From a virus (lineage: Duplodnaviria; Heunggongvirae; Uroviricota; Caudoviricetes), in IMG/VR virus record IMGVR_UViG_2529292920_000012: a stretch of DNA of 4,082 nucleotides. The stretch is one strand, 5' to 3'. Below, piece after piece: positions 1 through 4,082 of the stretch; the stretch's first letter is position 1, and every line of letters starts with the position of its first letter. The translations under genes were made by a program, and so were the position numbers. The notes beneath the pieces are model-generated. The model worked only from the letters and a program-made list of their open reading frames with translations, had not been told where the DNA came from and searched no databases.

Positions 1-1
1 G

Positions 2-361
2 ATACAGCAACAGATGAAAACACTGTCGCGTCACTCAGATACGGCAAAAGCGTTCGCATACCTGCTGAAACAGTGGGACGCACTGAACGTGTACTGCAGT
101 AATGGCTGGGTGGAAATCGACAACAACATCGCAGAGAACGCCTTACGGGGAGTGGCCGTAGGCCGGAAAAACTGGATGTTCGCGGGTTCCGACAGCGGTG
201 GTGAACATGCGGCGGTGTTGTACTCGCTGATCGGCACATGCCGTCTGAACAATGTGGAGCCAGAAAAGTGGCTGCGTTACGTCATTGAACATATCCAGGA
301 CTGGCCGGCAAACCGGGTACGCGATCTGTTGCCCTGGAAAGTTGATCTGAGCTCTCAGTAA
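2..361 (+). CDS. tnpC: IS66-family transposase (TnpC/orf3 type), C-terminal 119 codons; 5' end lies outside the window
   Basis: The frame is open from base 2 with no upstream stop, and the stop codon TAA is at 359-361. The translation ...DNNIAENALRGVAVGRKNWMFAGSDSGGEHAAVLYSLIGTCRLNNVEPEKWLRYVIEHIQDWPANRVRDLLPWKV matches the conserved C-terminal signature of IS66 transposases (GRKNWLFAGS ... YSLI ... LLPW). The ATG at 14 is internal, not the true start. Confidence 0.9.
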   Translation: MQQQMKTLSRHSDTAKAFAYLLKQWDALNVYCSNGWVEIDNNIAENALRGVAVGRKNWMFAGSDSGGEHAAVLYSLIGTCRLNNVEPEKWLRYVIEHIQDWPANRVRDLLPWKVDLSSQ

Positions 362-371
362 ATATCAATAC

Positions 372-391
372 GGTTCTGACGAGTCGCTTAC
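372..391. repeat. Putative terminal inverted repeat (right end) of the IS66-family element
   Basis: Plus strand ggttctgacgagtcgcttac; reverse complement GTAAGCGACTCGTCAGAACC. The partner repeat is outside the window, so the exact boundary is uncertain by a few bp. Confidence 0.55.
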
Positions 392-983
392 TTTTCTTGT
401 CAGTTTCTGTTGATGCATAATCGCTGAAGTCTTTCAGGATTTGTTCGCAGTCAACCGATGGAGATGTCTGGTTGGTATTTTCTGGTGATGGTTTGTTATC
501 TGATGCTGGGATTGCCCATCCCGGCAGCGATGGAGGGAGCCAGTAAAATCCTGTTCCATCCTTGAGTTTTGCCCTGTGCCATCCCTGCTTTTTATCGAGA
601 GATGTTTGTGCGAAACCTTCCTCAAGGTTATACAGATACCGACCGATTCCCCACTGAACGGCAGCGCGCTTCATTGCACCGGAACGACCACCTTTTACGG
701 CTTCTACCTGCGTGTTTTCAGCAGCATCCCATTTGGTTACCCATTCGGAATCAATCCTGATTGATATGCCGCATTCAACGCCTCCGTTGTTGGGAATATC
801 TCGGTATTCATTGCGCCATCCTGCTTTGCCGCAAACATCGTCAAGGCGTTTCATGATTGCCCTGTTCGTGACATAAGCCAGCACCATAGCCCACACCTTG
901 CCATCGCGTGTTTTACCGCTTTGCTGTATTCGCCATTCGATATCTTCAGGGCTGAATGGCTCATCGAATTTATTCAAATCCAT
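392..983 (-). pseudogene. Rad52-like phage single-strand annealing protein (recombinase) gene, 3'-truncated by the IS66-family insertion
   Basis: ATG at 983-981 preceded by GAGGTG (988-993). The translation contains YVTNRAIMKRLDDVCGKAGWRNEY and EAVKGGRSGAMKRAAVQWGIGRYLY, which resemble the Rad52 N-terminal annealing-domain motifs as I recall them. The 233-codon ORF in the track (282-983) is a chimera: codon 198 onward (S-K-R-L-V-R...) is encoded by the IS terminal repeat and the antisense strand of the transposase 3' end. Confidence 0.6.
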
Positions 984-991
984 AATTCACC

Positions 992-1162
992 TCAGAATGG
1001 ACATGGACCAAGGAAATAACGCTGATTTAATACTTCGGTCTTTGCCGCATTTAAAAAGACGCGAACACCTTCACGATCTCCCTTCTGGCGATACATTAAC
1101 GCCTGCTGCGTGTACATGCGTCTCTGTAACTTGCTCTCCTTCACTGTGGTTGCAAGTGACAT
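992..1162 (-). CDS. Hypothetical small protein, 56 aa (MSLATTVKESKLQRRMYTQQALMYRQKGDREGVRVFLNAAKTEVLNQRYFLGPCPF); below the ORF-track size cut-off
   Basis: ATG at 1162-1160 with a strong Shine-Dalgarno AAGGAG (complement of 1169-1174) and a 6-nt spacer. Its TGA stop (994-992) lies inside the Shine-Dalgarno sequence of the downstream recombinase gene, a typical phage coupling arrangement. I do not recognise the protein. Confidence 0.5.
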   Translation of the reverse strand: MSLATTVKESKLQRRMYTQQALMYRQKGDREGVRVFLNAAKTEVLNQRYFLGPCPF

Positions 1163-1241
1163 GAATATCTCCTTCGTTACCGATTAATTCTTTCATCTGA
1201 CGAATGAATTCTTCGTCTGACCAGTTATCTGTAAAACTCAT
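1071..1241 (-). CDS. Hypothetical small protein, 56 aa (MSFTDNWSDEEFIRQMKELIGNEGDIH...); overlaps the 992-1162 ORF in another frame
   Basis: Its ATG (1241-1239) overlaps the kil-like stop codon in an ATGA coupling motif. The track ORF 1071-1256 starts 15 nt further upstream with no ribosome-binding site, so I prefer 1241. The last ~90 nt overlap the better-supported 992-1162 ORF, so the true 3' extent is doubtful. Confidence 0.3.
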   Translation of the reverse strand: MSFTDNWSDEEFIRQMKELIGNEGDIHVTCNHSEGEQVTETHVHAAGVNVSPEGRS

Positions 1242-1390
1242 TTCCTGCGGTACCACGGAAGGTTGATAGCTGATTTCATCGCTTTATTTGCTTCAAGCCA
1301 CATTTTTGAATCACCAATAAATCTGGCTATTACTGCTTTGTTTTGTGCCGCACGAAGCATCTGGTGATTAATGGCTATTTCATTGCGCAT
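1238..1390 (-). CDS. kil: Kil-like small protein (host cell-division inhibitor family), 50 aa
   Basis: ATG at 1390-1388 with GAGG 7 nt upstream. Translation MRNEIAINHQMLRAAQNKAVIARFIGDSKMWLEANKAMKSAINLPWYRRK. The segment ARFIGDSKMW...A.K resembles the central motif of lambda Kil as I remember it, and the gene sits immediately after cIII as in lambda. Assignment is from memory plus synteny. Confidence 0.5.
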   Translation of the reverse strand: MRNEIAINHQMLRAAQNKAVIARFIGDSKMWLEANKAMKSAINLPWYRRK

Positions 1391-1506
1391 AATAAGACCT
1401 CAACTCTTTTCCATCCGTCACGTAATTTACGGGTGATTCGTTCAAGTAAAGATTCATTTAGTTGGAAGGCACCCATGCGAGCGCCTCCCGCGATTACGTA
1501 AATCAT
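1375..1506 (-). CDS. cIII: CIII-like protein (lambdoid FtsH-inhibitor / lysogeny regulator), 43 aa
   Basis: ATG at 1506-1504 with AAGGA 7 nt upstream. Translation MIYVIAGGARMGAFQLNESLLERITRKLRDGWKRVEVLLCAMK. The core ESLLERITRKLRDGWKR is identical to the amphipathic-helix core of lambda CIII as I recall it; the N-terminus (IAG...) is also similar, while the C-terminus differs and is shorter. Confidence 0.75.
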   Translation of the reverse strand: MIYVIAGGARMGAFQLNESLLERITRKLRDGWKRVEVLLCAMK

Positions 1507-1530: not shown

Positions 1531-4081
<2,551 letters not shown>

Positions 4082-4082
4082 T

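Follow-up and report, generated by a model that had tools for sequence, protein, structure and literature searches.

Two overlapping small genes ahead of the recombinase gene of an HK75/Sf6-type prophage, one with an Arf-like N-terminus

The closest described counterparts of the locus analysed in this paper are two small proteins of lambdoid phages, namely P22 Arf and the Gp33 protein of phages HK75 and HK446. Arf 'aids in, but is not essential for' P22 recombination, by a mechanism that is reported as unexplained (PMC12315714), and it has been proposed to be an acidic DNA mimic (PMC9836394). According to Poteete et al. 1991, as cited in PMC12315714, Arf is required for full Erf-dependent recombination and growth. 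For Gp33, a July 2026 preprint reports that the proteins of HK75 and HK446 suffice for the toxicity of the P2 OLD abortive-infection tRNase, that pBAD-gp33(HK75) sets off OLD with the same strength as the complete rec locus and that this effect resembles that of lambda Gam and T7 gp5.9. Its authors put Gp33 forward as a previously undescribed protein that inhibits or manipulates RecBCD (bioRxiv 10.64898/2026.07.10.737580). Here we describe the corresponding locus in the IMG/VR virus record IMGVR_UViG_2529292920_000012, a stretch of 4,082 nucleotides (nt) that we refer to, at its full length, as the window. Two overlapping open reading frames (ORFs), A and B, lie on its minus strand between kil and the recombinase gene. 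The translation of HK75_33 (NC_016160 25211-25381), which starts on the kil stop, is 100% identical to that of ORF B, and the unannotated ORF A of HK75 is 100% identical to that of the window. The preprint treats Gp33 as uncharacterised and mentions neither ORF A, nor the overlap, nor a link to Arf (bioRxiv 10.64898/2026.07.10.737580).

The locus is composed of the following features:

992-1162, minus strand: ORF A, 56 amino acids (aa), ATG at 1162-1160 and TGA at 994-992
1071-1241, minus strand: ORF B, 56 aa, ATG at 1241-1239 and TGA at 1073-1071
1164-1241, minus strand: B core, codons 1-26 (MSFTDNWSDEEFIRQMKELIGNEGDI), Arf-like N-terminal acidic helix
1074-1163, minus strand: B tail, codons 27-56, out-of-frame read-through into ORF A, predicted to be disordered
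1169-1174, minus strand: Shine-Dalgarno sequence AAGGAG of ORF A with a 6-nt spacer (ATATTC), within codons 23-25 of B
1238-1241, minus strand: ATGA, overlap of the kil stop with the ORF B start, translational coupling
988-994, minus strand: TGA of ORF A (992-994) overlapping the recombinase Shine-Dalgarno sequence GAGGTG (988-993)
1188-1241: the 50-54 nt at the start of ORF B that are 100% identical in L093, L101 and other kil-anchored loci

Direct reading of the minus strand agrees with the original prediction on both ORFs, on the AAGGAG with its 6-nt spacer, on the ATGA coupling and on an overlap of about 90 nt, which measures 92 nt (1071-1162), with A in the +1 frame relative to B. It likewise places the stop of A inside the recombinase Shine-Dalgarno sequence, as had been stated, and this GAGGTG stands 4 nt ahead of the recombinase ATG (983-981). 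An upstream GTG at 1256 is a possible alternative start for ORF B and would give 61 aa, and the frame of ORF A contains a TAA 8 codons upstream of its ATG. The start of B on the stop of the upstream gene is also found in other contexts, where the upstream gene is cIII (L006 and L009) or the overlap reads GTGA (L338). The two products differ in charge, A being basic with an isoelectric point (pI) of 10.1 and B acidic with a pI of 4.6. Chance ORFs of such size are frequent, with 53 ORFs of at least 30 aa in the window, and the case for A and B therefore rests on their conservation.

Both genes are already known as sequence features, and B has already been studied as Gp33. The label 'unrecognised' that the two ORFs had been given thus needs to be dropped, since both have PHROG families and annotations in Sf6, mEp213, HK75, HK446 or PGAP. 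Full-length matches are found to phrog_1723 for A (E 4.5e-34, residues 1-56 of the 58-position profile) and to phrog_2123 for B (E 4e-40). ORF A corresponds to Sf6 gp29, mEp213_040 and PGAP WP_000050554.1, and ORF B to Sf6 gp30, mEp213_041, HK75_33 ('Gp33') and HK446_033, the last of which differs from the ORF B of the window at two residues. The Sf6 annotators described gene 29 as similar to HK97 gp42 and gene 30 as similar to HK97 gp42.1. The annotation is inconsistent, however: the HK75 and HK446 records call only B, PGAP calls only A, and Sf6 and mEp213 have both. Sites of such mismatch are HK75 NC_016160 25132-25302, HK446 JQ086372 24810-24980 and L171 2271-2347. PHROGs labels both families 'recombinase', a label for which we see no evident basis. 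The expectation that neither ORF is like lambda Gam is borne out, as a Pfam scan at E<=1 returned only chance-level hits for A and B and no match to Gam. NCBIfam gave nothing for the ORFs, and searching PDB sequences with the profiles of the two families returned no hit below E 0.07. We found no paper in the literature that names HK97 gp42/gp42.1, Sf6 gp29/gp30 or either PHROG family. What is new here is the relationship of the B core to Arf, the unconstrained tail of B and the overlap of A with the cloned gp33 fragment.

We propose, with a probability of roughly 0.55, that A and B are two independently translated small genes of the leftward early (PL) operon of an HK75/Sf6-type prophage, B having an Arf-like core that acts via RecBCD and A being an accessory factor. 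B would be translated by coupling to kil. Its working part would be the first ~21-26 residues, which may form an acidic amphipathic helix and share ancestry with the N-terminus of P22 Arf. Module shuffling may have put this core ahead of A without a stop, in which case ribosomes would continue in the -1 frame of A to the first stop. B would most likely compromise RecBCD, by direct binding or by DNA mimicry, and this might both favour the annealing-protein pathway of the phage and be sensed by OLD. A would be translated from its own strong ribosome-binding site inside B and could, with low certainty, be an accessory factor of the recombinase module.

The core of B is significantly similar to the N-terminus of P22 Arf, which points to homology. 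In hhalign, B and the Arf families are aligned with a probability of 81% and an E of 1.2e-5 over 18 columns, and in BLASTP the N-terminus of B is identical at 10 of 21 residues to the Klebsiella Phage_Arf member P0125 (E 4e-6). Three B-type proteins match the PHROG 'Erf recombination cofactor Arf' weakly (E ~0.04), all in one register. A hidden Markov model (HMM) of the B core scores 22.1 bits on P0125, compared with a maximum of 13.8 in 5000 composition-matched shuffles, and P22 Arf itself outscores all 5000 of its own shuffles. The N-termini of B and Arf have in common the motif [WF]-x-D-[DE]-[DE]-F-I-x-x-[MI], and the pI lies between 4.0 and 4.6 for B, for a 35-aa form of B that is described below and for Arf (4.05). 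P22 Arf resembles B in being small and acidic and in the position of its gene, which lies in the PL operon with kil (or cIII) on one side and the annealing-protein gene on the other. Unlike B, it matches Pfam PF17585, on which it scores 117 bits, and has a conserved C-terminal half, whereas the C-terminus of B is ORF A read out of frame.

We also considered whether Arf could be a fusion of the N-terminus of B with the C-terminus of A, on the basis of LNL[AS]R-E..N in A and INLAA-ERQN in Arf. This candidate was rejected, as hhalign recovers this register but with an E of 0.28 and a probability of 0.2%. With the A-family HMM, four of the five Arf sequences score no better than shuffles (p 0.15-0.33; 39/5000 for the fifth). 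Another small ORF in the same slot is HkaM of HK620, which lies just upstream of the Sak4 recombinase and was first annotated 'arf' by position. It differs from B in that it is reported as an orphan without Arf homology, and it is known here by description only (PMC5928155).

The second line of evidence for the function of B comes from Gp33. In HK75 and HK446, gp33 occupies the same slot as ORF B, after kil and before the Rad52-type annealing protein, single-strand-binding protein (SSB) and Abc2. The HK75 module differs from that of the window, which is cut by insertion sequence (IS) elements on both sides, but the proteins are identical. Lambda Gam and T7 gp5.9 share the OLD-triggering phenotype of Gp33. 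T7 gp5.9 is a small acidic protein, as is B. No sequence similarity of B to lambda Gam, T7 gp5.9 or P22 Abc2 was found in Pfam or the PDB, and in intact relatives Abc2 is encoded, unlike B, by a gene of its own that follows the recombinase gene. RecBCD impairment would be the most economical reading of the Gp33 effect. It had been suggested for A and B that the slot in which lambda carries gam typically holds anti-RecBCD or accessory recombination functions. The position agrees with this, but the module is of the P22/HK97 type and not lambda Red, and its known anti-RecBCD gene, abc2, is found downstream of the recombinase gene in intact relatives. For B, the suggested accessory or anti-nuclease role gains from the Arf-like N-terminus and from the OLD triggering by the identical Gp33; RecBCD inhibition itself is a proposal only.

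The OLD response might not have to pass through RecBCD at all. B might be an Arf-like cofactor of the annealing pathway or perturb DNA metabolism in some other way, and thereby trigger OLD without inhibiting RecBCD. Possible routes could be aberrant DNA or single-stranded DNA structures, or a direct contact with OLD. P22 Arf, the one relative whose role has been defined genetically, is classed in the literature as an accessory recombination function rather than an inhibitor of nucleases (PMC12315714), and modules of the HK75 type already have abc2 for RecBCD. Against this stands the observation that Gp33 alone, without phage DNA or recombinase, is enough for OLD toxicity. We regard this explanation as possible, if rather doubtful.

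To compare the two frames we counted variants within alleles among 101 haplotypes from unbiased samples, which were anchored on kil, on the Rad52-type protein or on Erf, and normalised the counts by mutational opportunity (kappa = 3). A first polymorphism sample was discarded because its loci had been picked by identity to protein A, which is circular for the overlap, and a per-site count that pooled two A alleles was replaced because a divergent mosaic block in A codons 20-42 confounds it. In the overlap, we observed 13 variants that are synonymous in A and non-synonymous in B, with 4.5 expected if neutral, and 2 that are non-synonymous in A and synonymous in B, with 5.1 expected. This favours the A frame (13 vs 2, binomial p 0.003). 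The part of A outside the overlap holds 19 synonymous and 11 non-synonymous variants, compared with 8.2 and 19 expected (omega ~0.25, p 7e-5). No variant was seen at 1165-1176, and the AAGGAG and ATG of A are invariant.

A deep comparison was made with the Pseudocitrobacter prophage L338, whose A is 68% identical, using the ratio of non-synonymous (pN) to synonymous (pS) change. For A this pN/pS is 0.27 overall. Codons 1-21 of B have a pS of 0.84 and a pN of 0.22, and the resulting pN/pS is 0.27 as well. Within the overlap the ratio is 0.22 when the sequence is read in the A frame but 2.76 when it is read in the B frame. Purifying selection is thus seen there for A only, contrary to what dual coding would require. 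The question of which frame is conserved among related prophages, raised with the original prediction, is answered by A throughout and by the N-terminal part of B only: B is conserved over ~21-26 N-terminal residues, its core, and the rest is an incidental tail. The frame used by B is open for 31-42 codons in four of the five A genes that have no upstream B. The long tail of B is therefore a property of the A sequence and is not kept for B. Its endpoint differs by allele, giving 52, 53 or 56 aa, and AlphaFold2 predicts a helix at residues 9-20 of B followed by a disordered tail with a pLDDT below 55.

B lies at the boundary between modules. The regions of DNA that match other phages end exactly at the B ATG and at the A stop, and a further break is found inside B after codon 17-18. 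Since the first 50-54 nt are identical between A-linked and RecT-linked modules, a mosaic recombination junction lies inside the B coding sequence itself. Where B ends is set by the next module: in RecT modules its stop lies 8 codons into a 103-aa gene, and here it lies 25-31 codons into A. In the RecT modules (L009 2586-2897 and 22 kil-anchored loci), the 35-aa B shares 23 nt with the start of the 103-aa acidic ORF (phrog_3486), which is conserved, and the two frames are offset by +1 as they are for B and A. The 103-aa ORF may be another accessory gene of recombination modules. Length variants that keep the frame occur within B as well. The B proteins P0029 and P0036 have an in-frame tandem duplication in which EFIRQMK is present two or three times, and Klebsiella phage phiKp_30 has an in-frame deletion of 15 nt (DNWSD).

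Several observations weigh against our proposal of an Arf-like B that acts via RecBCD and an accessory A. Firstly, B has no match to PF17585 Phage_Arf at E<=1, and the C-terminal half of Arf (INLAAERQNP..W.EFAG) is absent from B, the tail of which is unrelated. Secondly, constraint on the B core within populations is weak: the part of B outside the overlap holds 14 synonymous, 27 non-synonymous and 1 nonsense variants, compared with 9.0, 30.9 and 2.0 expected (omega ~0.55, p 0.03-0.05), and one haplotype has its nonsense codon at B codon 8. Thirdly, PGAP does not call B, and ORF A has no significant sequence or structural relative in BFVD, PDB, Pfam or NCBIfam. The published gp33 primers (F ...ATGAGTTTTACAGATAACTGGTC; R ...TCACGATCTCCCTTCTG) match the first and last codons of B and delimit exactly the 171-nt ORF B, and this cloned fragment also carries the ribosome-binding site, the ATG and the first 30 codons of A, so that the assignment of the activity to B is provisional. 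Finally, binding to RecBCD and its inhibition by B are hypothesised only.

Some of these points would fit an explanation in which only A is functional. B would then be a relic or a fortuitous 5' arf-like remnant, and the OLD activity of the clone, which includes the ribosome-binding site and 30 codons of A, would come from the fragment A(1-30). The A frame is the better conserved one and is the one that PGAP calls, the constraint on the B core within populations is weak and includes the nonsense codon, and the first 50-54 nt of B are 100% identical across unrelated downstream modules, as they would be at a recombination boundary. We nevertheless consider this improbable. Synonymous change between the B core and its Pseudocitrobacter counterpart is saturated while pN/pS stays at 0.27, the B start is coupled to an upstream stop in several contexts, and the deletion in phiKp_30 stays in frame. 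Moreover, the similarity to Arf beats composition-matched shuffles at the protein level, and a 30-residue half of a helical hairpin is unlikely to be active.

True dual coding, in which the 30-residue tail of B is functional and the 92-nt overlap is kept by selection on both frames, seems very unlikely to us. In three lineages (window/Sf6, L338 and L006) the B frame continues without a stop over 25-31 codons of A, and the Gp33 experiments used the full 56-aa form. However, both the pN/pS of the B frame and the excess of variants that spare A run counter to it, the tail varies among alleles in length and sequence and is predicted to be disordered, the same frame is open in most A genes without B, and a 35-aa B with a different tail exists.

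The overlap had alternatively been attributed to a frameshift within a single ancestral gene. This idea was rejected because A and B each occur without the other, and we treat them as two separate genes. A is found without B in L007, L008, L170, L339 and L340, which include Salmonella phage epsilon34 (gp37) and Kluyvera and Yersinia prophages. B is found without A in the 35-aa form, MSFTDNWSDEEFIRQMKEMLNQHKEQEKDDDSDS[EK], which follows kil or cIII, precedes the 103-aa ORF and a RecT gene and was seen in L009 and in 22 of the 80 kil-anchored loci. Of the copies in the unbiased samples, 203 could be aligned over their whole length, 190 of these without a gap relative to the window. Among the remainder only two indel variants change the ORFs, the 83-aa fusion of HK97 and L144, and ~99% of the copies keep the two-ORF layout. 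A single continuous ORF with a common junction, as a frameshifted ancestor would predict in relatives, is not what these copies contain. There are 82-aa proteins that match both ORFs, but their frame switch is at differing residues and these fusions therefore represent independent indels or sequencing errors. A single ~82-aa ancestral gene that was split by a frameshift here, or a programmed +1 frameshift that gives a B-A fusion, is hardly credible despite the continuous ORFs of 82-83 aa in databases, as A also has its own invariant AAGGAG and ATG downstream of an in-frame TAA and no significant similarity to the C-terminal half of Arf. When the sequence near the A Shine-Dalgarno was inspected by eye for a prfB-like +1 frameshift site, the B frame had neither a stop nor a slippery context.

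The published HK97 genome (L112 / L259, IMG/VR 638275989) deserves a separate remark. Indels fuse the first ~43 residues of B to the last ~37 of A, resulting in the 83-aa product, and the same indels shorten the A frame to 45 aa. Either HK97 gp42/gp42.1 are atypical of the family or the 2000-era HK97 sequence is erroneous. HK97 is OLD-sensitive by report.

For A, AlphaFold2 confidently predicts a helical hairpin with helices at residues 7-27 and 30-51 and a mean pLDDT of 87.8. A fold search with this model against viral predicted structures (BFVD) gave no match at E<=0.001, the hairpin being too generic. An exhaustive profile search shows that the A family is small, with ~15 clusters at 50% identity, and that its members are basic. 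They end in [YFH]-F-L-G-x-x-P-F or a close variant of it. FLGxxPF corresponds to residues 50-56 of ORF A (window 992-1015) and is present in the family members P0129-P0145, and the epsilon34 type has FLA/FLS variants and SELPF. The tip of bacterial SSB, ...DDDIPF, docks onto many repair proteins, and the ...PF end of A is reminiscent of it. Residue 53 of ORF A is hypervariable (P, S, E, L, A or Q), and one locus (L139 / L265) has an in-frame duplication of six codons (YRHNGE/D) in A. The Sf6 gp29 / HK97 gp42 family (PHROG 1723) is like A in its length of 56 aa, in FLGxxPF and in its position 8 nt before the recombinase gene. The gp37 of epsilon34 is a divergent member of PHROG 1723 (epsilon34/sal4-type match, E 1.4e-31), and its annotators liken it to ST64T Orf-66 and ES18 gp50.

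In all 150 full-length loci anchored on Rad52 or Erf, the recombinase gene is preceded by an A-family ORF, with 8-10 nt between the end of the one and the start of the other. A is also found ahead of other ERF-family recombinases in Kluyvera and Yersinia and ahead of an AAA_24/Sak4-type recombinase in Pseudocitrobacter. The recombinases that A accompanies belong to unrelated families, and its partner would accordingly not be the recombinase family itself. With low certainty, we would expect a host factor, DNA, SSB or B as the partner of A rather than a particular recombinase.

An out-of-frame tail without constraint makes up over half of Gp33 as annotated, and a peptide of ~25 residues is therefore the probable active element. 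The Arf-like core would tie a 35-year-old unexplained recombination accessory function to a RecBCD/OLD phenotype. The cloned gp33 fragment holds the start and 30 codons of A, the better-conserved gene, which is missing from the HK75 and HK446 annotations. A, which lies ahead of the recombinase gene at each of the related loci examined, is an obvious candidate for a component that has so far been missing from phage recombination modules and recombineering systems.

We can also offer, tentatively, a broader suggestion, in which the Arf-like helix of B, the 35-aa form and P22 Arf are one widespread family of RecBCD-directed peptides at the promoter-proximal edge of lambdoid recombination modules. 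The basic hairpin protein A might also be the partner of the acidic B or an adaptor to a host factor, and translation of B across the ribosome-binding site of A might set the ratio of A to B. If the family suggestion were true, compromising RecBCD would be the function of Arf that has gone unexplained since 1991, and an anti-RecBCD gene would be present in many phages that are scored as having none.

The window as a whole is a fragment of a lambdoid prophage with insertion sequences at both ends, and besides ORFs A and B it contains the following features:

1-361: IS66-family transposase, C-terminal 115 codons (PF03050 and PF13817)
392-983, minus strand: gene of the Rad52/Rad22-family single-strand annealing protein, the recombinase (PF04098, E 7.9e-26)
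1238-1390, minus strand: kil, host cell-division inhibitor, directly upstream of ORF B (PF06301, E 1.7e-20; phrog_2055)
1375-1506, minus strand: cIII, FtsH inhibitor (PF02061, E 7.1e-14)
1531-2157, minus strand: TolA-like coiled-coil gene without its 5' part, homologue of Sf6 gene 33 (distinct from HK75 Gp33)
~2130-4082: IS21-family element, within the TolA-like coiled-coil gene
2214-3236: istA of the IS21-family element, intact
3233-3748 and 3831-4016: istB of the IS21-family element, two pieces that are mutually out of frame

Phage homology spans 392-2129, and the minus-strand order of the phage genes, TolA-like, cIII, kil, ORF B, ORF A and annealing protein, is that of the PL operon. The recombinase gene is a homologue of Sf6 gp28 and HK75_32. 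It lacks ~39 C-terminal codons compared with the intact gene of 708 nt, as it is abutted by the end of the IS66-family element (window 1-391), which adjoins phage DNA at ~392. In intact relatives the module consists of kil, B, A, the Rad52-type annealing protein, SSB, in some cases written with a 3'-5' exonuclease, and the Abc2 anti-RecBCD protein. SSB, exonuclease and abc2 are outside the window, since the IS66-family element cuts the recombinase gene before them. No RNA family was detected with Rfam, and sites resembling promoters or terminators are present only at chance level. The istB gene is broken between ~3720 and 3830, and the IS21-family element is therefore probably defective. The same phage genes were also met in an unexpected place: L334 (JAFADF010000066.1), a 3.9-kb contig labelled 'MAG: Actinomycetes bacterium', carries cIII, kil, B, A, the Rad52-type protein and SSB, a phage module of the E. 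coli type, and its label is probably a binning or contamination artefact.

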